Assembly: GCA_041389005.1 (NCBI GenBank)
Contig: JAWKSR010000004.1
Coordinates: 7,959-71,958, forward strand
Length of the DNA stretch: 64,000 nt
Direction: 5' to 3'
Source: Minisyncoccota bacterium
GTDB lineage: Bacteria; Patescibacteriota; Minisyncoccia; Phycocordibacterales; UBA918
The translations under genes were made by a program, and so were the position numbers. Below the pieces are notes generated by a model. The model saw nothing but the letters and a program-made list of their open reading frames with translations. It ran no database searches and had not been told where the DNA came from. The first letter of the stretch is position 1; every line of letters begins with the position of its first letter. Of this stretch, positions 17,304 to 57,212 are shown one piece after another.

Positions 17304-18002
17304 ATGCTTCATCTTTTTTATGGTAACGATACAACAGCAGTGCGCGAAGCAGCGCACAAAAAGTAGACACGTTTACTGCTGATGGACACGAGATTAATTT
17401 AATTGATACGGATAATTTTGCGCCCGGGATTTTGACTGAACAAGCAACCGCCGAGTCTTTGTTTGGTAATAAAGTAGTCACCGTTCTTGATACTCCTTCG
17501 GCTAAAGCGGAGTACAGCACAGCAGTACATGAGTCTGTAGAAATGTTGGCAACTTCTGAACATCCTTTTGTGGTAATCGAGACTACACTGCTTGCAGCCG
17601 CTCTTAAGCCGTATAAAAAGTACGCCACTTCACTAGAGGAATACAAGACCGGTCCAGTTGGACGGTTTGATTTTTTTGCACTCACTGATGCACTGGCACG
17701 TAAAGATAAAAAGCAACTCTGGGTCTTGTTGCAAAACAGCCGCTTGGAGGGTATTCCAATTGAGGGTAGTTGGTATGTTGTGGTGGCAACTTAAAACCTT
17801 ACGGTTAGCACAGCAGACTAATTCAGCGTCTGAAGCTGGGATGAAAGAATTTCCTTACCAAAAAGCCACACGAGCGCTGACTAATTTTACAGACGGAGAG
17901 CTGACTCAGCTTTCTCATAGTCTTTTAACACTGCAACACGAGAGCCGGCTCGGGAATACCGATCTTGACCAAGCCCTCGAGCGCTGGGTACTGACAGTGT
18001 AG
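17304..18002 (+). pseudogene. holA: DNA polymerase III delta subunit-like (HolA), at least 2 frame changes (possibly assembly indels)
   Basis: MLHLFYGNDTTAVREAAHKK then a stop. It continues in ORFs 17432..17794 and 17658..18002 (..LWWQLKTLRLAQ..ELTQLSHSLLTLQHESRLG). ATG lies 2 nt after the polA stop. Confidence 0.55.
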
Positions 18003-18033: not shown

Positions 18034-18150
18034 ACATACCGTTTCAGTAGAGGTTGTCGACATTTTCTTTAAATGTCTGGCAACCTTTTCGAGTCACGCA
18101 ACGGTTTTTTCAAAACCTGCTCTGGTGCGCATCCATTCACTTCGTTTCTG

Positions 18151-18223
18151 TCCGCCCACCAGGACTCGAACCTGGGACCCTCGGCTTAAAAGGCCGCTGC
18201 TCTACCAGCTGAGCTATGGGCGG
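18151..18223 (-). tRNA. tRNA-Lys (anticodon TTT)
   Basis: Manual cloverleaf: acceptor CCGCCCA/TGGGCGG, D arm GCTC-AGCTGGTA-GAGC, anticodon loop CTTTTAA, T arm CCAGG-TTCGAGT-CCTGG. CCA is not encoded. Confidence 0.85.
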
Positions 18224-18290: not shown

Positions 18291-18785
18291 ATGAGTCCAC
18301 AAAGAGTTGTCATGCTTGATAACATCCGTAGTGCCCATAATGTAGGGTCTATTTTCCGTACCTGCGATGGTGCTGGAGTAGAAAAGTTATATCTTATTGG
18401 TACTACCCCAACTCCGGTTGATCGATTTGGACGAGTGCAACCAGAAATAGCCAAGACATCTCTTGGCGCGACCGAAAGTGTTGCTTGGGAACAGATCGGG
18501 TCTGCAGAGAGTCTCTCCACCCAAACAGCAGTTGCAGAAATCGAATCTCTAAAACAAGCTGGGTACGCCATAGTGGCGGTGGAACAGACACCCCAGTCTG
18601 TGTCGCTGACGAGTTGGCAACAGCCGCAAAAAGTTTGCTTCATTTTTGGCACCGAACGCGGGGGACTGCAACCTGAACTGCTACAAATCGCCGACCACAT
18701 CATAGACATCCCTATGCACGGACAGAAAGATTCACTCAATGTATCTGTTTCAGTGGGTGTTGTTTTATATCAGTCTCTTAGATAG
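18291..18785 (+). CDS. SpoU/TrmH family RNA 2'-O-methyltransferase
   Basis: 164 aa. NIRSAHNVGSIFRTCDGAGV.. and the C-terminal ..IPMHGQKDSLNVSVSVGVVLY knot motif of SPOUT methyltransferases. Confidence 0.85.
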   Translation: MSPQRVVMLDNIRSAHNVGSIFRTCDGAGVEKLYLIGTTPTPVDRFGRVQPEIAKTSLGATESVAWEQIGSAESLSTQTAVAEIESLKQAGYAIVAVEQTPQSVSLTSWQQPQKVCFIFGTERGGLQPELLQIADHIIDIPMHGQKDSLNVSVSVGVVLYQSLR

Positions 18786-18910
18786 TTAAATAGCTTAATT
18801 TTATCCAGGTAGACAATCCACAAGTTGTGTGGTCGACTTGATTTTTCTGTACTAGTGTGGTATTTTGTAGAGGATATTCCCCGCGTAATCAAAAAGAAAG
18901 GAGTGGGACG

Positions 18911-19537
18911 ATGAGTATCAAAGTACTTTTGACATCAGCAATATTCCTGCTCCTGGTGGGAGTGGGACAGGCACAGGAGTCGAATGCTCCGGCAGCGCAG
19001 AAAACATTTTGCGCATCTGGTCCAGAAGCCGCTGAGATCTGCAAACCGGCTGAACACCGGGATGATTCAGCCGCCCTCCTTCGGGAGGTGCTTGCGGAGA
19101 TTGACACGGCTGTCAATCAGAGCATGGTTTATGCGACTGACATGCAGGTGCATGGCGTAGCCGAGCACTGGTCCTTTGGCAGCATCGCTGCTGACGGCAA
19201 GCGGTACGGTGATTGTGAGGATTACGCGCTTACCAAGATGTACAATCTCTTGGAACGCGGCGTAGATCGCGCACACCTGATTCTGGCATACGCGCTTACT
19301 CCAGGCACCGACCTGGACGGCGTTGCCAATGTCGCCTTCAATGGAGAAAATCGTGTTGGTCATTTCGTACTGATGGTTGACCACGTTGACGGACTGCTGG
19401 TACTAGACAACTTCTTCGGAGTTGGCAGTATCAAATCGTTCCGTAATCGGGGTTACCATTTCCAGGCGTTTCAGGATCCAACCAATCCTGATCTCTGGTA
19501 CGACTTTGACCAGGCAGTCCTTGAAGCGATGTCCTGA
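18911..19537 (+). CDS. secreted transglutaminase-like cysteine protease, BTLCP / LapG-like (Peptidase C93 type)
   Basis: ORF 18857..19537 trimmed to MSIKVLL.. with RBS aaaggag. Signal peptide. Cys motif YGDCEDYALTK, His in RVGHFVLMV, Asp in LVLDNFF. G/C-ending codons visibly enriched relative to neighbours. Confidence 0.7.
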   Translation: MSIKVLLTSAIFLLLVGVGQAQESNAPAAQKTFCASGPEAAEICKPAEHRDDSAALLREVLAEIDTAVNQSMVYATDMQVHGVAEHWSFGSIAADGKRYGDCEDYALTKMYNLLERGVDRAHLILAYALTPGTDLDGVANVAFNGENRVGHFVLMVDHVDGLLVLDNFFGVGSIKSFRNRGYHFQAFQDPTNPDLWYDFDQAVLEAMS

Positions 19538-19560
19538 GCCTTGCTGATAGAAAGAAAGGG

Positions 19561-19590
19561 AACCCGGCAACAGCGTTTGCCGGGTTTTTT
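19561..19590 (+). terminator. intrinsic terminator of the BTLCP gene
   Basis: aacccggcaa-cagcg-tttgccgggtt followed by tttttt. Confidence 0.8.
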
Positions 19591-19677
19591 GCTGTCTGTT
19601 AACTATTTACTACGAGTAACAATTTGCGGTGTATACTTAAGTAATAGCTTTTTTAAAAGTGATGATTAGATAGTTTT

Positions 19678-21301
19678 ATGAACACCGCCCCTCTCTCATT
19701 AGTAACCTTAGTGCTACATTCGCAACTCATGCCGGTAGTGGCTTTTGCGAAGCGCCACGTACATCGTTCTGGAGTTTTCTTTGGTGACTTCGGTATCGTT
19801 ATCAACGCTTTCGGTGGTGTTTGTGTTAGGCGGGGGAGGAGATACGGGAGGAAGTGGAACAAGTAATACTACTATGGGACCCGATCAGGCACGTGCCGTT
19901 ACCGGACATCAGGCTTCCATCTGGTGACACGTGGTCAAATTCAGGCACAGGAGACAGTATCAGCGTAGAAAACACCTCCACCCCTTCCTCCTCACCTGGA
20001 ACGGAGGGAAGTTTGAACACGAGAACGATTTGTTTGCTAAACCCAACAGTGCCTTCGAAGAATACAAACAAGGACTCGAATCCTATCAGAAAGGTATCAC
20101 TGGCGATATCTATCTACTCAAAAATAATTTAGTACCACTGAAAATGGTGAACTGAAACTCAGATCCGAGAACTGGAACCAGAAGAATCATTCATTGACAC
20201 CTTCACCCTCAACGCCCTTGATCTTAAACCAACAGAGCATTTCATTGCTGACGGCAGCACCGACAGTCATATATCTTTGATACCAAGTGATCCATACTAT
20301 GACAGTGAAGTCACCCACCATTCTCACCGATTTTGCTCAACCACGGATACTGCATAACCAAGCAACCTAACCAAAAGAACAACTAAAGATACTACCCCTG
20401 CACACCAGTGATGAGCTCGTGCTCACCATCACACCAGCCAAGATTGAAACCGACAAAGACCTGTTCCTTTTGGTTGACTCTCACTACCGGGACTGGTCAC
20501 TCGGTGACAGGTGCCATTTTCTACGTGGGAGCGGATGCAGATAACTGGAAAACACTTGCCAATAACACCACCCTAGCTGCCGGTCTCATCCTTGCCCTCG
20601 GAGCGCTCCTCAGTGGCAATAATCCACTGGTAAACCATAAAAAAACTTTCTCAGTCCCGCACACCTATGCTGATGTGCCGGCTTCGCCCGCAACATCGCC
20701 AGAAACGTGCCTTCGGGAGAATTCTAAAGGTGAAATAAACGTCAGCACCAACTGCTTGATAATGGAAGCAGTGGTGGAAGTGGAGGTAGATTCGGGAAAT
20801 CTCGTCATCTCCGCTGGTTCAATGACCGCACAAACCTATCTCCAAACGCTGTTTCCTCGCTACGTACAAACGGCGCAGGAAGTGGTCCGCATTCCCGTGC
20901 ACTCATCCAATCAACGGTGACACAGACTTAGTCGTTCGCATCAAAGCCACCAAAAACACAAAGTGTGTGGAGCCACCCTCTTCTCTGGTGGTAAAACACC
21001 TGTGAGTTAATTACCATTAAAAATCACTAAAGCTACTCACGAACGTACTGGTACCGATCACAGCACCAATTTAACTAAGAAGAATGAGCAATTCTTGACA
21101 CCATCCCCGGTGATGTGGTTGATGTATCAGTACAAGATACCGTTCATCTGACACCAGACGTCACTGCACATTACTCACCACTCATGGTTTCTATACCAAG
21201 CTGTCTCAACCAGCTGCCTATCAGATCGGACCGCGCTGGCTCTCTCGATTGCACAAAGAAGATCGGAAATTGCTTAAGACGTTGCGGTTAGGGGTTTAAT
21301 C
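19678..21301 (+). pseudogene. large secreted/anchored protein gene, copy 1 of a duplicated pair, heavily frame-disrupted
   Basis: Nt 19720-21301 align with 22465-24113 at high identity. The differences are mostly 1-nt length changes in mononucleotide runs. Only short ORFs remain (e.g. 20408..20920). Confidence 0.6.
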
Positions 21302-21316
21302 TATAAATATTTGTTT

Positions 21317-22404
21317 ATGATTTCAAATAAAAATAAGAAAAATTTTGGTAAAGCAACTACGCTCATAATAGGCTTGGTTAGTGTAGTGTTGCTCGGATAT
21401 GTGATCTGGGTGTTAGCTGATAGGTTCATGCCAACTTCCCCTAATAATTCCAATACTGGCACACCAAATCACTACCGAAACAATTAAACCGACTGGAATG
21501 TTGGCTCTAAGTGGTGTTGAAGCAAGTGCCTCAAGCACGTGGCAAATTTATGCCATTGCTGCTGATGGTTCTGAGAACACTTTCCTAACTTATCTCTGCT
21601 CAGTATGACGTGTTTTCCAATGCTTCAGTACATGCATAGACAAAACACAGCCAGAACACTTCTTTTTTAAAGCGCTTTGGGCACCAGATCAAGAAGCAGA
21701 TCCGGCGACTAAATTGTTTGAATATACATACGGCGAGTGGAAATCGTACCGGTTAATCTAGGTGTGGTTCACGGTGATTATCGAATTATTCTCCGTATAC
21801 CGAACAGATAGCCTTCACTCGTTATACGGGAGACGCTACCTCCAGTACAACCAACTTGGTGACTGGGAGATTGTAATCGCCAATCGAGGCGGAACGAAAT
21901 AGGTCTTGTTGCCGATGCTTGGAATCCAGTGTGGTATGAACAAGGAAGTTCACTATTGTATCTCAAAACTGATGGTGTCTACCGATATGATACTGCCACT
22001 AATGAGGAAGACACGGTACTGCGTTTCAACATTACGACAACCAATTCACTGTTGATACTGCTGCTGGTTTTGCTGTCAGTAACGGCGAACGATCCTTGGT
22101 ACTGACACTCGGTAATATTTATTCGTACACCCTTAATGAGTCTGGAGTTTTTGAACAAGTTGTGCGTATACCTGGGACACAAGCAGTGCACTTCAACCCA
22201 GTCTTTGATCCAACCAGCACACTATATGCCACTATAGCAGTGTCTCGCGACAGCCCGGTGCCTGCTATTGAAATACGCGCTATTGAGGGAGTAGAACCAC
22301 TTGTGACCATTCCCCTCACTGATTTCACACCGGGACAGATGAGTCTCGATGATTGGGCGACACACACCCCAACGTGCGTAACAGGAAAGAAACAGTGTTT
22401 GTAA
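21317..22404 (+). pseudogene. TolB/PD40-like beta-propeller secreted protein, frame-disrupted
   Basis: N-terminal anchor MISNKNKKNFGKATTLIIGLVSVVLLGYVIWVL. Later pieces such as WNPVWYEQGSSLLYLKTDGVYRYDTATNEEDTVL read in other frames. Lies between the two paralog copies. Confidence 0.45.
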
Positions 22405-22415
22405 GCTAACGTATA

Positions 22416-24113
22416 TTGACCATACCGTATGAATCTAACTCTATTAACAAACACCATATTAAACTCGCAACTCATGCTAGTAGCAGCTTTTGCAAGCGCC
22501 ACGTGTGCATCGTTGGAGTTTTCTTTGGTGACTTCGGTATGTTATCAACGCTTTCGGTGGTGTTTGTGTTAGGCGGGAGGAGAACTTGGGAGAATCAAGT
22601 TCAGGTCTTCGCACTTCAGTTAGCGTAACCGCAGCGCGGCAGGCGCAAGATCTCAGGGAAGTCACTGGCACAGAAGCCTATGATGAACTCAAAGTGGTTA
22701 CAGTACTGGAGTCGTAGGTACCAGTGGTCTAGGTATCGGGTATGACACCGTTGGAGTAAATGTAGAAAGTGATTCAAACTCCACCCCCACTTCCTCCTCA
22801 CCTGGAATGGAAAACAGTTTACACACGAGAACGATTTCTTGTTTGCTAAACCCAACAGCGCCTTCGAAGAATACAAACAAAGGACTCGAGTCCTATCAGA
22901 AAGGTATCACTGGCGATATCTATCTACTCAAAAATAATTTAGTACCACACGAAAATGGTGAACTGAAACTCAGATCAAGAACTGGAACCAGAAGAATCAT
23001 TCATTGACACCTTCACCCTCAACGCCCTTGATCTTAAACCAACAGAGCAATTTCATTGCTGACGGCAACCTCAAACAGTCATATATCTTTGATACCAGAG
23101 CAGTCACATACTATGACAGTGAAGTCACCCACCATTCTCACCGATTTGCTCAACCACGGACACTGCATAACCAAAGCAAGCCTAACCAAAAAGAGTACCA
23201 ACTAAAGATACTACCCTGCACGCAGTGAGCTCGTGCTCACCATCACACCAGCCAAGATTGAAACCGACAAAGACCTGTTCCTTTTGGTTGACTCTCACTA
23301 CCGGGACTGGTCACTCGGTGAGCAGGTGCCATTTCTACGTGGGAGCGGATGCAGATAACTGGAAAAACACTTGCCAATAACACCACCACCCCTAGCTGCC
23401 GGTCTCATCCTTGCCTCAGGACGCTCCTCAGTGGCGGCAATCCACTGAAACGCCATAAAAAGCTTTTCTCAGTCCGCACACCTATGCTGATGTGCCGGCT
23501 GCGCCGCCAACATCGCCAGGAAACGTGCCTTCGGGAGAATTCTAAAGGTGAAATAAACGTCAGCACTAATTGCGATAATAACAACAGAGGCGGCGGTCGT
23601 TCGTTGGTCATCTCCGCTGGTTCAATGACCGCACAAACCTATCTCCAAACGCTGTTTCCTCGCTACGTACAAACGGCGCAGGAAGTGGTCCGCATTCCCC
23701 GTGCACTCATCCAATCGCTTGGTGACACAGACTTAGTCGTTCGCATCAAAGCCACCAAAAAAACACAAAGGTGTGGAGCCACCCTCTCTTCTCTGGTGAA
23801 AGTCAAAACACCTGAGTTAGTACCATTAAAAATCACTAAAGCTACTCACGAACGTACTGGTACCGATCACAGCACCAATTTAACTAAGAAGAATGAGCAA
23901 TTCTTGCACACCATCCCCGAAGTGATGTGGTTGATGTATCAATTTAAAGATGCACCTCGTTCAGCTGACACCAGACGTCACTACGTACTCACCACCAACG
24001 GCTTCTATACCAAACTGTCTCAACCAGCTGCCTATCAGATCGGACCGCGCTGGCTCTCTCGATTGCACAAGAAGATCGGAAATTGCTTAAGACGTTGCGG
24101 TTAGGGTTTAATC
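22416..24113 (+). pseudogene. large secreted/anchored protein gene, copy 2 of the duplicated pair, frame-disrupted
   Basis: Aligns with copy 1 at an offset of about 2745 nt. The longest surviving ORF is 23349..24104. Confidence 0.6.
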
Positions 24114-24144
24114 AACTTCTAAATTTTTTTGAGAAATTACGATA

Positions 24145-24178
24145 AAAAGAGCCCAGCTAGTATCCAGCTGGGATTTTT
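24145..24178. terminator. intrinsic terminator between paralog copy 2 and convergent murE
   Basis: aaaagagcccagctag-tat-ccagctgggattttt. Confidence 0.7.
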
Positions 24179-24183
24179 CTCAT

Positions 24184-25466
24184 TTACAGTTGTTGTAATG
24201 CTTCCTGCATCACTTCAGCATCCTCCAGGGTTCTTTAGTGTTGTTTGGACCTTGATATAGGGGTCGGTGCCTTTGCCGGAAACGATGACATAATCACCGT
24301 CCTTCGCTTTAGCGGACGGCTGCAGCAATAGCTTCTCGCCGATCCATAATGATGTCGAGTTTGTTTTGATTTTTTATTCCCTTGACCATATCTTCAACGA
24401 TCTGACGAGGATTTTCATCATACGGATCTTCGTTAGTAAGGATGATGTGATCACAATATTGCTCAGCAATTCGTCCCATTTCCGGGCGTTTCCAGGTGTC
24501 TCTACCGCCACCGGTATTGCCAAGCACACACACTTTTGGCACCTCTTTAAAGGCAAGATAGAGCTTTTCGAGTGAGTCAGGGGTATGAGCATAATCAACA
24601 ATGGCTGTGACGTGTTTGGTAGCCTCTTTAGGGGAGTAGAAGTGTTCAACTCGTACATGAATGGGTGGGAGATCTTGCAGGGCAGTGGTAATAGTATGTA
24701 GTGAAACACCAAGTGCACGAGTAAGGGTGATGGCAGCGAGGGTGTTGTAGACATTAAAAAGCCCAACCAATGGCACTCGTACTGTCACTTCCTCGGTTCC
24801 GTCTTGGAAAATGAGTCCAATGCCGTCGCGGTGCAAGGTGTGGAGCTTAAGATCCTGCAGTCTATACGGTAACTTTTCTTCTACCGAAACATCTAAAAAG
24901 TCCTTTCCATGTTCATCATCCATATTAGCCACTATGTACCGAGGCTGCTTACCTGACTCTAACAACTGTTCAGCAATCGCTAACTTTGCTGCTTTATATT
25001 TTTCAAAAGAGCCGTGTGATTCAATATGCTCAGGAGATAAGTTAGTGAATACTAAAGCATCGAAATCGATAAACTTATGACGGAATTGCTTTGCTCCCTC
25101 CGAAGTCATTTCCAGAACGACATGGGTACAACCAGCGGTTACCGCTTGTCGTAGGAATCGCTGCACGAACAGACGACCAGGTGTGGTCATCTTATACCGG
25201 TTTGGTGTGTCGGTATCACCGATAGTAAAGTGAATGGTTGAGAGAGAAGCGACTTTATGACCGTTGGCGCGCAAAATCGCGCTAATAAGTTCCACGACGG
25301 TAGACTTTCCTTTAGTGCCGGTCACCGCGATAACAACCAATTCTTTTGCTGGATGCTGATACACTGTTGCTCCGAGCCAGGCTAAGAAAAAATGATACGG
25401 TGGACGAATGAAGCCAAGTAGTATTTTTGGGGTAACCCGTTTTATCCAATACAGCAGCATTTCCAT
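24184..25466 (-). CDS. murE: Mur ligase, MurE-like; C-terminal ~40 codons frame-disrupted
   Basis: ORF 24309..25466 has VTGTKGKSTV (P-loop), KMTTPG and TSEGAKQFRH. After the apparent stop the sequence continues in other frames as ..KDGDYVIVSGKGTDPYIKV.. and ..WEDAEVMQEALQQL plus a stop at 24184. Confidence 0.75.
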
Positions 25467-30159: not shown

Positions 30160-30891
30160 ATGATAGTGCTGAAAATGTTAAAGCCTTACCCTAGATTGCC
30201 TGTACAGACAATCATATCAAGAAGCGCCATGTGGTTTTTGGGGACTCGTATTTTTTCCACTCAGAATACTTGGTTTTGTTACACTTCAATCTCATTACAA
30301 TGAATTTGAAAGAAAGAATAGTCCATTACATTGTGCTTCAAATCACCGCCTCCAGCTGACCCACTAATAATTGGAATCGCTTTATTTCCTTTTTTAACGT
30401 ACTGTTTTACGCCACTGTCACCGTATGCCGCACCGTTACACCGTTTGGTAAAGCCCGGACAACGCTTGGCACGTAAACTTGGCTTTTTTCAGGTAGTTTA
30501 TTTCATCTTCAATGTGGTACGCATACCAGACAATACATCTTTTGAAGAAAAACTCGCCCCTTTGGTAAGTGTCGTAAAAAAAGGACACACAGTGTTAATT
30601 TTTCCGGAAGGTAAAAGTGTACGCGAAGATCATGTACAGCCTTTTAAACGCGGAATCGCCGAACTATATCGTCAGACTCGTGTGCCGGTTGTGCCATGTA
30701 CTGTCCATTATAAGAAGGGGTGGGCACTTCCTCGCGCCGTAGTAACGTTTGGTGCTCCACTCCATGTACCAAACATTATTCTTGAAAAGGGCGATTTAGA
30801 AGAAATAGCGGAGTATCTCAGGCGTGTAGTTGATGATCAGTACCAAAAAAGTACAATGAGCGATATAATCACCCGCTATGATACTCGCTGA
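30160..30891 (+). CDS. lysophospholipid (1-acyl-glycerol-3-phosphate) acyltransferase, PlsC/AGPAT family; N-terminal part frame-disrupted
   Basis: ORF 30331..30891 has FPEGKS (motif III) and VPVVPCTV (motif IV). The NH(x4)D motif is readable just upstream (ASNHRLQL / DPLIIGIAL) only by changing frame. Confidence 0.7.
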
Positions 30892-33311
30892 CTTTATTTT
30901 TCTAGCTTTGTGTATTGTTGGATCCCTGATACTGGCAACACAGCGCACTTTTTTATGGGTTTGGGCGTTCTTTTTCGGCAGTCTAGGAATACTTTGGCAA
31001 GTGACCGCTGGCACAACAACTCATTCAATTGTTGCCACGTTATTTTTTGTGTTAATGGCGGGTAGCCTTCTTTTTTCATTTGCACCGATACGACAGAGGC
31101 TTTTTAGCGCACCAATTTTCCGTCGCGCCCGCCACTATAAAGCCCATATATCAAACTTAGAAAAACAAGCCTTAGCAGCGGGCAGTGCTGGTTTCGAGAC
31201 AGGATTTTTTGAAGGGAAGCCGCGCTGGGATCAACTTCGTTCATATGAAATAAAACCATTTACGCCGAACGAACAGAAGTTTCTCAACGGACCAATAAAA
31301 AAATTTTGTGAACTTACACATGATTGGAAAATACGCCAATCGCGAGTGATTCCAGATTCTCTTTGGGAATACGCTAAACAAGAAGGTTTTTCTGGGCTTA
31401 GAGTACATAAAGAGTGGGGTGGAAAACAATATTCGTTTCAGGCTCAATCAATAATGTTGAGTAAAGTAGCAACTAGGGCTGTCGATAGTGCAATCTTTAT
31501 TGAGTTACCAACCTCGCTCTATCCTGATGAAATTATTAATGAGTATGGAACCGATGAGCAAAAAAAATATTATCTGCCACGTCTTGCCAAAGGCGAGGAA
31601 GTAGTCTCTTTTGCAGTTACCGGTGCACAGGGCTCTGATGTGGGGGGTATGACTGATGAAGGAGTGGTGACGTATGGTGAACATGAGGGTCAGCAGACAC
31701 TGGGCGTCAGAATAAACTGCAATAAACGCTACATTACCTTTGCCCCGAAAGCATCTTTGTTTGTATTGGCATTTTCTTTAAAAGACCCAGAAGGTCATTT
31801 AGGTTTAGGAGCGAACCTGGCATTACCCTCGCCCGTTGATACCAGCAACTCATGAGGCGTCACCGCCGAGAAGGCATTTTCCAATGGGACTTGCGTTTCC
31901 ACATGGTCCCATTGAAGCAACTGACATGTTCATACCGTTGGCGTGGATTATCGGTGAGCGCACAGGAGTCGGTCTGGGCTGGAAGATGATTATGCAATGC
32001 CTTTTCATGGGTCGGGCGTTAGCTCTCCCTTCTATTTCGGTGGGAAGCATTAAATTGGCACTTCTTACGACTTCTGCTTATGCCCGCGTGCGCAGACAAT
32101 TCGGTCTTTCTATCGACACCTATGAGGGTATTAAGGAATCGCTGGCTGAGCTTGTTGAACTGACGTATGTTTCTGAAGCTGCCCGATCTTTAACGGCGGC
32201 ATTGGTCGACAGTGGATCGCGCCCGCTTGCAGTGTCTTCACTGATGAAATATCGTATTACCGAAAATGCTCGTTCTGCCATTAACCATGCGCTCGATGTA
32301 CACGCTGGAAAAGGCGCTTGTGATGGCCCAGCAAACTACCTGCTCTCAGCATATAATGCTGTTCCGATTGGCGTTACGGTAGAAGGGGCAAACATTGTCT
32401 CGCGCTCAGTTATTACGTTTGCGCAAGGAGTGTTACAAAGTCATCCGTTTGTGCGTCCTGCCCTTGAAAGTTGCGAAAGTAAAAATTACAAACAAGATCT
32501 TGATGATTTTGACAGCGCCATTTCAGGACACATACAACTATTGCAGGCAAATGCAGCTCGTTCATTTTTACATGCAATATCAGGTGGCGTATTTGCGTCG
32601 TGCCCCCGCGATGTACCAAAAGATATACGTAACTGGTATCGCGCACTTTCTCGGTATACCAGTTCGTTTGCGTATCTCAGCGATGTGACAGTGATCACGA
32701 TGGGTCATGAACTAAAGAAAAAACAAAAATTAGGTGGTCGTTTAGCCGATGTTCTCGCGGAATTGTATATATTGTCAGCGGTGTTAAAACAGTACGAAGA
32801 GGATGGTTTCCCCGCCGAGGATTATCCTATTATTGAGCAGAGTTTAACCAACGGTTTGTATCGTATAGAAAAAAATCTTTTAGCGGTGATACGTAATTTC
32901 CCGCAACGCTTATTGCGCCCACTGCTATTTAGTATTGTATTTCCAGTCGGTGCGTGGCGACAACCTGCCAAGGACGCGCTTACAACAACCGTGGCAGATA
33001 GCGTCAGCGAAGCAACGCCCACACGTGCCCGGCTGACACGCCATGTGTTTATTTCAGATTCCTCCAATGATTCAGTACGACAGCTTGAAAACGCATTTGT
33101 AGCAGCTAACCATGCAGCGTCAGTTTACAAAAAAATACGCGCAGCGACCCGTGCCGGTCTCTTAAAGAAAGACCACACACAACTGCAAGTAGCTGAATCA
33201 AAAGGGATTATTACAAGCGAAGAGGCACACCTCTTACAAGAAGCGGAAAAAACCGCCAAAGTAGCTATTGCCGTAGATACATTTGAACAGGATGTGTACA
33301 GACCAGCCTAG
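30878..33311 (+). CDS. fadE: FadE-type acyl-CoA dehydrogenase (N-terminal TM segments, ACAD core, long C-terminal extension), frame-disrupted near 31800-31860
   Basis: ORFs 30878..31855 and 31836..33311. YGTDEQKKYYLPRLAKGEEVVSFAVTGAQGSDVGG, NKRYITFAP, RRHFPMG..PHGP, TVEGANIVSRS. Architecture and motifs match E. coli FadE as I recall it. Confidence 0.8.
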
Positions 33312-56606: not shown

Positions 56607-57212
56607 TCAGGTGGTACGGACTCTGGTTGCACCAGTCCATTCATCACCTTCAGCCTTGGGATAGTTATACCATCCGCGGGCACACCAGTTGTCGACCTTG
56701 TGGGCGAAAGCGGCCAGCTCGTTCATCACGCGCCGTTTGCTAGTATAATCGTGAATCTCACCTTCGACGTAGGTGAAGCCGTTGAATTGGTTGTCGTCGA
56801 GAATGAGACCATACGCTGCCAGCTTGTCTTCACGAAACTGCTTGAACTCCGCCTTGGTGGCGAGTCCATCACGGTTGGAAGCCTGTCCTTGTTGGTTGAC
56901 CAGAATCCGCCACGGCTTTTCAAGGTCGTGCAGGAAGAAAACCAACAGTGCATCCGAAAGTGAGAACGGCAGTGGTCTTCCAAACGCTTTGTCGAAGTTG
57001 TAGAGGTGACGAGCATAGTTCATGCCGTCAGTTACGTGGTCGATGTAGCCACCGTCCCAAGTCTGGTGGTTGTGGGTTGAGCCACGTGCCTGCTCGAAGA
57101 GTGAGCGGTTATCAGTAAGGATAGTGTGACAGATTGACCGATTCGGCTCCTCAATCAAGTCGATAAGCTGTTCAATCGGCAGGTAGTCGAGAATCAGAGA
57201 AACGGTTCTCAT
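56607..57212 (-). CDS. HD-domain-like phosphohydrolase (tentative)
   Basis: 201-aa intact ORF. His (..STHNHQ..) and a downstream FFLHDLEKP, as in H...HD metal sites. G/C-ending codons enriched. Terminator aagccctgcttcatgtggggctttttc on its strand. Confidence 0.5.
   Translation of the reverse strand: MRTVSLILDYLPIEQLIDLIEEPNRSICHTILTDNRSLFEQARGSTHNHQTWDGGYIDHVTDGMNYARHLYNFDKAFGRPLPFSLSDALLVFFLHDLEKPWRILVNQQGQASNRDGLATKAEFKQFREDKLAAYGLILDDNQFNGFTYVEGEIHDYTSKRRVMNELAAFAHKVDNWCARGWYNYPKAEGDEWTGATRVRTT

Follow-up and report, generated by a model that had tools for sequence, protein, structure and literature searches.

In a 64,000-nt stretch of a Minisyncoccota bacterium genome (contig JAWKSR010000004.1, positions 7,959 to 71,958; hereafter the window), a gene at 18911..19537 on the + strand encodes a 208-aa cysteine protease of the BTLCP family (Peptidase_C93). 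On balance, we favour the view that this protease is resident in its Paceibacterota (candidate phyla radiation, CPR) genome and not a recent proteobacterial import, that it belongs to no Lap-type system and is not orthologous to LapG, and that it is a Sec-exported enzyme heading a CPR envelope module and acting on extracytoplasmic, likely co-encoded, proteins. The family is known and the protein is already auto-annotated, since an identical protein at NCBI is named ‘transglutaminase-like cysteine peptidase [Candidatus Paceibacterota bacterium]’ (the phylum Candidatus Paceibacterota is now Minisyncoccota). What is new is a divergent, insertion-bearing BTLCP sub-lineage in CPR bacteria, fixed beside an uncharacterised, CPR-specific gene pair.

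The fixed position of a BTLCP next to this pair in at least three Paceibacteria genomes makes it a testable candidate for cell-surface protein processing in CPR bacteria. To our knowledge, all characterised BTLCPs come from Proteobacteria and Desulfovibrio, where LapG and DvhG release adhesins and HvyA controls the capsule, and very little is known of the CPR envelope and of host attachment. We found no paper that combines Patescibacteria with the BTLCP protease family.

The BTLCP gene and its product

The reading frame is intact; it opens with the ATG at 18911 and closes with the TGA at 19535-19537. Its product matched Pfam PF06035 (Peptidase_C93/BTLCP; MEROPS C93) with 83.2 bits against a cut-off of 27 bits, over profile positions 3-159 of 162. 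The catalytic residues are Cys102 (nt 19214-19216) within YGDCEDYALTK (residues 98-108), His151 (nt 19361-19363) within GHFVLMV and Asp166 (nt 19406-19408) within LVLDN. All three were invariant in an alignment of 32 family sequences, and the triad was aligned in 122 of 125 family members. Residues 1-21 (nt 18911-18973) form a predicted Sec-type signal peptide, MSIKVLLTSAIFLLLVGVGQA, followed by QE and with the cleavage site falling between GQA and QE. A Kyte-Doolittle value above 1.6 was reached by a single 19-residue span of the protein, residues 1-19. An earlier, sequence-only reading of this DNA had described a 208-aa BTLCP with a signal peptide and Cys-His-Asp motifs, and the profile match and the invariant triad confirm it. 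As judged from its sequence, the protein is an intact, Sec-exported member of the BTLCP family.

The activity of LapG and DvhG requires the C-H-D triad and a Ca site flanking the Cys (PMC13090378). In the window protein, an Asp and a Glu likewise lie either side of Cys102 (D-C-E; Asp101-Cys102-Glu103, codons 19211-19219, with Asp104 next), forming a predicted Ca2+ site. A group profile matched the sequences of LapG structures (4U65, E = 3.5e-20; 4FGO, E = 1.3e-12), with the segments around Cys, His and Asp in register. Between Cys and His lie 50 aa compared with the canonical 35, which corresponds to a 15-aa insertion. Near the N-terminus, C34 and C44 form a Cys pair similar to the FCxxxPxxC of ~200-aa family homologues (alignment A2).

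Gene order and origin of the BTLCP

A TrmH-based scan of metagenome contigs yielded 23 related loci, which were compared by tblastn. These loci keep a backbone of a type II secretion system E-like gene, TsaE, PolA, HolA and TrmH, and then convergent MurE and RuvA. The upstream anchor in the window is a trmH/SpoU-family RNA methyltransferase gene (18291..18785, + strand; Pfam SpoU_methylase, 117.8 bits), which is syntenic in at least 23 related contigs. The downstream anchor is a murE-like Mur ligase gene (24309..25466, - strand; Pfam Mur_ligase_M and Mur_ligase_C), with 58-75% identity in the syntenic relatives that carry murE. The interval between the two anchors is 5.5 kb in the window (18786-24308), 120-190 bp in L083, L085, L097 and L101, and 1.2-2.6 kb with unrelated content in L087-L093, L098 and L099; among related genomes it is a variable hot spot. 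A tRNA-Lys(UUU) gene (18150-18223, - strand) lies directly 5′ of trmH on the opposite strand and does not directly adjoin the island.

Within this interval, the BTLCP gene of the window is followed by genes for a ~520-aa and a ~385-aa protein (the 520/385 pair, described below). The pair lies within the trmH-murE interval in L106-L109, with or without a BTLCP, and, as judged from the murE side, in L110 and L113; in L111 and L112 the pair comes after trmH, with murE not found on the locus. At least seven Paceibacteria contigs besides the window have the pair at this locus; among the seven, it stands just upstream of murE in five and downstream of trmH in four. The gene order in L106, the closest backbone to the window (PolA 69% identity), is trmH, a PF06035 protein (41.7 bits), 539 aa, 384 aa, 118 aa (opposite strand), 521 aa, 392 aa, 121 aa, murE and ruvA. 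In L107 it is trmH, a PF06035 protein (32.6 bits), 522 aa, 387 aa, murE and ruvA. L106 duplicates the whole pair, and the window duplicates the 520-aa gene. A site empty of just the BTLCP was not seen, no relative found being similar enough for that. Relatives showed either a BTLCP in the same position or no island at all.

The three positional BTLCPs share several further traits. A signal peptide is present in all three, and a strong intrinsic terminator lies directly 3′ of each gene (7873-7896 in L106, 1276-1301 in L107). Their Cys-His spacings (50 aa in the window, 63 in L106 and 59 in L107) are among the longest of the 125 family members, 92 of which have a spacing of 35. Each is also the richest gene of its neighbourhood in GC and in GC at third codon positions (GC3): GC/GC3 is 0.533/0.560 against ~0.46/0.43 for the neighbours in the window, 0.537/0.586 against ~0.50/0.54 in L106, and 0.466/0.443 against ~0.40/0.34 in L107. 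Because the positional homologues share the same offset, the higher GC is probably a property of the BTLCP gene lineage and not a mark of fresh transfer.

The sequence-only reading had called the gene GC-richer than its flanks, with its own ribosome-binding site (RBS) and a GC-rich terminator, and these descriptions hold. Its GC3 of 0.560 compares with 0.400 for trmH and, among 59 open reading frames (ORFs) of the window (mean 0.43 +/- 0.065), ranks third highest with z ~2. The excess is real but moderate. Two further GC3 outliers, the ORFs at 42991-44064 (+ strand) and 56607-57212 (- strand), have GC3 values of 0.57 and 0.62 and are without a Pfam match. A Shine-Dalgarno sequence read from the DNA, AAGGAG (18898..18903, + strand), lies 7 nt 5′ of the ATG. 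A terminator scan called a GC-rich intrinsic terminator after the BTLCP gene (19557..19590, + strand; stem 19561-19586, then a T-run) and a terminator-like hairpin with a T-run after trmH (18821..18840, + strand), which separates trmH from the BTLCP unit. With terminators on both sides, the BTLCP gene looks like its own transcription unit.

A 10-bp direct repeat had also been reported on both sides of the gene. An exact pattern search found TTAGATAGTT at 18778..18787 (+ strand), as described, where it overlaps the trmH stop codon, and at 19666..19675 (+ strand), just 5′ of the first ATG of the first ~520-aa copy; this second occurrence had been placed at about 19663. These are the only two exact occurrences in the whole window. 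In ~3% of random placements or shuffles, two 170-nt flanks of the same geometry had a 10-mer or longer in common, and as an insertion mark the repeat is suggestive only, especially after a window-wide search. No integrase or transposase was found in the trmH-murE island. The locus carries a methodological warning, in that a GC3 excess and neat flanking signals mimicked a fresh transfer; composition alone misleads here, because the same GC3 excess is found in the positional homologues of other genomes.

An exhaustive HMMER search with the BTLCP against 1.84 billion representatives returned 1094 matches, none of which, a fragment of the protein itself aside, exceeded 40% identity or 68 bits. The top matches (30-40% identity) are of mixed source and include a diderm contig, a Paceibacterota metagenome-assembled genome (MAG), Agrobacterium and phage contigs. 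The best-scoring homologue, P0004, adjoins a ShlB/POTRA outer-membrane gene, pointing to a diderm organism, and P0007 adjoins DUF932; P0009 belongs to a further Paceibacterota MAG, P0011 to Agrobacterium/Rhizobium. Among the GTDB genome matches listed, identities were 27-39% and the best 80 were all from Alphaproteobacteria; this listing is a biased sample, and no conclusion on origin was drawn from it. BTLCP genes were very common on viral contigs (IMG/VR; L117-L196), with at least 199 confirmed among 600 pattern matches, at 25-42% identity to the window protein. Consistent with this, river viruses are reported to have BTLCP as their commonest auxiliary gene, one that is horizontally exchanged (PMC11283719). 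A tblastn search of GenBank phages gave no match, and a word-indexed search with the single protein returned itself and one weak match only.

From the HMMER search, the GTDB genomes and the viral contigs, no donor of the gene was identifiable. Diderm bacteria or phages may be the ultimate sources of the CPR BTLCP clade. The longest Cys-His insertion (67 aa) was found in P0115 (L116, 2275-2970), which groups loosely with the window and L106 proteins. Its gene is flanked by a phage-type integrase on one side and several transposase genes on the other, a context which hints that the insertion-bearing subtype is mobile. A recent proteobacterial import of the window gene, as in the proposal of a proteobacterial-type unit, is not supported: identities to non-self sequences were at most ~40% in these searches, and the positional counterparts in L106 and L107 share the GC offset, the terminator and the insertion. 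These counterparts also approach the situation in which the homologues come from related small-genome lineages of the same composition.

The neighbouring genes and the Lap-type model

Directly downstream of the BTLCP unit lie copy 1 of the ~520-aa gene (19678..21293), a frame-broken ~385-aa gene (21311..22404) and copy 2 of the ~520-aa gene (22416..24106), all on the + strand. Copy 1 was delimited by frameshift-aware alignment to P0290, P0294 and P0289, and its fragments matched the family hidden Markov model (HMM) in all three frames. The ~385-aa gene was read in three frames, with family HMM matches at 21417-21605, 21863-22102 and 22006-22401, and copy 2 was located by repeat detection, copy alignment, frameshift-aware alignment and BLASTP of the repaired copies. 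The latter share ~75% aa identity over residues 81-514 (BLASTP). On the contigs examined, no ~520-aa gene stands without a ~385-aa gene after it.

The repaired ~520-aa paralog has 51 homologues of ~500-590 aa (P0289-P0336 among them), all from CPR bacteria where the source is named (Kaiserbacteria, Nomurabacteria, ‘Patescibacteria group’), and together they make up a CPR-specific envelope protein family. At ~520 aa, the neighbouring proteins do not fit the large surface proteins that had been proposed. No Pfam domain was found in the 51 homologues, and nothing above threshold was found on the ORF fragments of the paralogs and of the ~385-aa gene. The family sequence includes FLHTIPGDVVDV, and its architecture comprises a signal peptide and a Gly-rich linker, with two beta-sandwich domains and, centrally, a hydrophobic helix. 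In an AlphaFold model of P0290 built with 47 homologues (pLDDT 75, pTM 0.70), the N-terminal 84 residues, covering the signal peptide and Gly-rich linker, are disordered, followed by a beta-sandwich (~85-260), a long helix (272-303) and a second beta-rich domain (~355-520). Foldseek searches with this model gave weak matches to jelly-roll, carbohydrate-binding module (CBM) and Eph ligand-binding domain (Eph-LBD)-like folds and no convincing structural homologue. The L107 homologue of the ~385-aa protein matches Pfam PD40, and the ~385-aa protein consists of an N-terminal transmembrane (TM) anchor and a PD40-like beta-propeller.

The sequence-only reading had found the two paralogs to be frame-scrambled, and this is borne out. 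Full-length readings of both copies were regained by frameshift-aware alignment to intact homologues, with 45-47% identity to P0290. The reading frame had to be changed 15-16 times for copy 1 and 16-18 times for copy 2, whereas no more than 0-3 in-frame stops were met. Frameshifts of +/-1 and +/-2 occur about once per 100 nt across 19678-24106, and the ~385-aa gene is split over three frames. The motifs STPFLLTWNG..ENDFLF, IRELEPEESFID, DSHYRDWSLG, TYLQTLFPRYVQ and EDRKLLKTLR are intact in the repaired copies, and homopolymers hold 11 of the 15 single-base indels between the copies. The frames of BTLCP, trmH, murE and polA are intact.

Two genes elsewhere in the window are split as well. A holA-like gene (DNA polymerase III delta subunit; 17432-18002) is broken into two overlapping ORFs in different frames and is a single frame in L083, L086, L106, L108 and others; this split is probably another indel error. 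A FadE-type acyl-CoA dehydrogenase gene (30878-33311), an unexpected metabolic enzyme for a Paceibacterota genome, is read as two ORFs overlapping by 20 nt (Acyl-CoA_dh_N; Acyl-CoA_dh_1 and ACDH_C), likely due to a frameshift. Since the indels fall mostly at homopolymers, in-frame stops are few, conserved motifs are kept and the holA- and fadE-like genes are also split, the frameshifts of the island are probably indel-type assembly or polishing errors concentrated in a repeat-containing region, and not decay.

A T-L-A-A-G motif in both paralogs had been put forward as the site of LapG-like cleavage. The motif is present in copy 1 (20570-20584); the equivalent in copy 2 (23389-23403, in another frame) reads P-L-A-A-G. 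The copy 1 motif falls at the very start of the conserved hydrophobic segment in the centre of the protein, ~290 residues from the N-terminus, where homologues mostly have T-x-L-A-G, L-T-G or I-A-G, so that the second Ala, and with it the di-alanine, is not conserved. LapG cleavage sites have T, A or P at P2 ([T/A/P]AAG; PMC13090378, PMC6890996), whereas this residue is Leu in TLAAG, and [TAP]AA[GV] is absent or non-conserved in the ~520-aa family. As a protease site, TLAAG is therefore not upheld: it has Leu at P2, opens a hydrophobic helix and lacks a conserved second Ala.

Other components of a Lap-type system were also missing. The NCBIfam LapG equivalog NF045674 scored 31.4 bits against a cut-off of 320, matching residues 57-127 only, which rules out a LapG orthologue. 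A crude motif test on the six-frame translation of the window found no GGDEF or EAL signature. No cyclic di-GMP (c-di-GMP) receptor, either LapD-like (HAMP-GGDEF-EAL) or DvhD-like (dCache-HD-GYP), was found among the island neighbours, and the genes of L106 and L107 have no such Pfam family recorded. A retention domain or DP motif was not found in the ~520-aa neighbours, which have a Sec signal peptide and no Pfam domain, nor did the repaired paralogs contain the LapA-like retention module that had been suggested as a check. No TolC or type I secretion system (T1SS) gene was seen in the syntenic loci, and no polysaccharide export or capsule genes were found within the locus in the window, L106 or L107. 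With Leu at P2, an unconserved di-alanine and no retention domain, DP motif, T1SS or c-di-GMP receptor, LapG-style cleavage of the neighbours is unsupported. The description of the protease as LapG-like thus finds no support, given its equivalog score and the missing LapD-type receptor, T1SS and retention-module adhesin.

Proposed role, alternatives and known systems

The BTLCP is the first gene of a ~5.5-kb envelope island between trmH and murE, with the ~520-aa and ~385-aa genes as its core. We propose a role for it on this basis. After removal of the signal peptide, the protein would act outside the cytoplasmic membrane. The host lineage is generally regarded as having no outer membrane, so the term ‘periplasmic’, used in the sequence-only reading, would not apply. 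On extracytoplasmic envelope proteins, the enzyme may have Ca2+-dependent thiol protease activity or, possibly, transamidase activity. The likeliest targets would be one or both of the co-encoded ~520-aa and ~385-aa membrane proteins, at their ectodomains or Gly-rich linkers. This would agree with the general tendency of BTLCPs to target extracytoplasmic features encoded close by (PMC4241560). A functional association with the 520/385 pair is supported solely by synteny, in the form of a gene order conserved across three divergent genomes. The protease-neighbour link suggested earlier is thus probably right as far as the recurring gene order in L106 and L107 goes, but not in its LapG-style mechanism. 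As the core of the module exists without the protease in five genomes, the BTLCP counts as an accessory component and may be a regulatory one.

Several observations weigh against this proposal. The substrates are presumptive, and a single-sequence AF2 model of the BTLCP was unusable (pLDDT 39.6). The protease occurs in just three of the eight genomes with the module, and in Candidatus Kaiserbacteria RIFOXYB1_FULL_46_14 (L108/L109, 6294-7004) its slot holds a signal-anchored protein with PG_binding_1 and DUF4189 domains; because five genomes have the pair without a BTLCP, and L108/L109 another protein in the slot, the BTLCP is dispensable for the pair. The neighbours are frame-broken in the assembly and, if this is real, the presumed substrates are pseudogenes here. 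The three positional BTLCPs have a pairwise identity of 26-28%, below the 30-40% that the window protein shares with proteobacterial BTLCPs. In neighbour-joining (NJ) trees, bootstrap support was at most 29% for any grouping of the window protein, with L106 as its commonest sister (20-29%). NJ trees of MurE, PolA and TrmH did not show the BTLCP-bearing genomes as a clade. The module may also have been lost patchily or exchanged between related CPR genomes.

Among the alternatives, the one we take most seriously, as less likely but of appreciable probability, is that the BTLCP is aimed elsewhere, at the cell's own wall or capsule, as with HvyA, which controls capsulation in Caulobacter, or at the host-cell surface of a CPR episymbiont, and that its neighbourhood is a shared hot spot for envelope genes. 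The variability of the trmH-murE interval across relatives, the five genomes with the pair and no BTLCP, the peptidoglycan-binding protein in the slot of L108/L109 and the transcriptional insulation of the gene by terminators are all in line with this. So are HvyA-type BTLCPs, which act on envelope features and not on adhesins (PMC4241560), and the status of BTLCPs as common, freely exchanged phage auxiliary genes (PMC11283719). However, all three CPR-context BTLCPs with long insertions lie directly 5′ of a ~520-aa gene on the contigs examined, and no capsule or polysaccharide genes are nearby. It is very improbable that the whole island is decaying, with pseudogenes for neighbours and the BTLCP as a not-yet-degraded remnant without current function. 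The 15-18 frameshifts per ~520-aa copy and a ~385-aa gene spread over at least three frames would be explained, but the BTLCP ORF is intact over the matched Pfam positions with all catalytic residues kept, and the repaired neighbours retain their motifs, have few in-frame stops and are 45-47% identical to intact homologues. The homopolymer indels (11 of 15 single-base differences between the copies) and the split holA- and fadE-like genes elsewhere in the window fit indel-type assembly error better.

We give almost no credence to a BTLCP/LapG cassette that came recently from Proteobacteria, was inserted with a 10-bp target-site duplication and releases the neighbouring surface proteins at TLAAG in the way LapG acts on LapA. 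The GC3 of 0.56 against 0.40 in trmH, a 10-bp repeat that flanks the gene exactly (p ~0.03), the gene's own RBS and terminator, the diderm context of P0004, the alphaproteobacterial origin of the best 80 GTDB matches among those listed (a biased listing) and L-A-A-G in both copies speak for such a cassette. Synteny has already largely refuted it, since positional BTLCPs with the same GC offset, terminator and insertion occur in L106 and L107. Furthermore, no non-self sequence exceeds ~40% identity, the island is without an integrase or transposase, and the LapG equivalog scored 31 against a cut-off of 320. The putative site has Leu at P2, opens a hydrophobic helix and has no conserved di-alanine, and a retention module, T1SS and c-di-GMP receptor are all missing. 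We retain the proposal of a resident, Sec-exported BTLCP heading a CPR envelope module. A bolder extension, which we regard as quite doubtful, is that the BTLCP, ~520-aa and ~385-aa proteins constitute a CPR-specific, protease-controlled surface-protein system, a monoderm analogue of Lap/Dvh without c-di-GMP control or type I secretion, through which an ultra-small episymbiotic bacterium would regulate whether an attachment protein is displayed or shed.

The LapG proteins of P. fluorescens and L. pneumophila (4U65, 4FGO) and of V. cholerae share with the window BTLCP family membership, a signal peptide, the C-H-D triad and the Asp/Glu of the Ca2+ site (PMC6890996, PMC13090378). Unlike LapG, the window protein has a 15-aa Cys-His insertion and the C34/C44 pair, and its locus is without LapD, a T1SS or a retention-module adhesin with a [T/A/P]AAG site. 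The window host is also taken to have no outer membrane, which is where LapA is anchored. DvhG of Desulfovibrio vulgaris is 33% identical to LapG in the catalytic core, keeps the triad, the Ca site and protease activity, and targets proteins of the same locus (PMC13090378). Its associated components (a T1SS, large adhesins and DvhD, a receptor of HD-GYP/dCache type) are all missing from the window locus. Phage BTLCP auxiliary genes, which document the horizontal movement of the family (PMC11283719), show the same twilight-zone identity to the window protein (25-42%); in contrast, the window gene has no phage genes nearby and lies in a conserved chromosomal locus. The closest sequence type is that of HvyA and other alphaproteobacterial BTLCPs of ~200-270 aa (27-40% identity), which have the same length and the same arrangement of a signal peptide and a single BTLCP domain, and whose targets are the envelope and not RTX adhesins (PMC4241560). 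HvyA sits in the capsule export locus of a diderm, whereas the window BTLCP lies beside a CPR-specific membrane-protein pair and bears a lineage-specific insertion.

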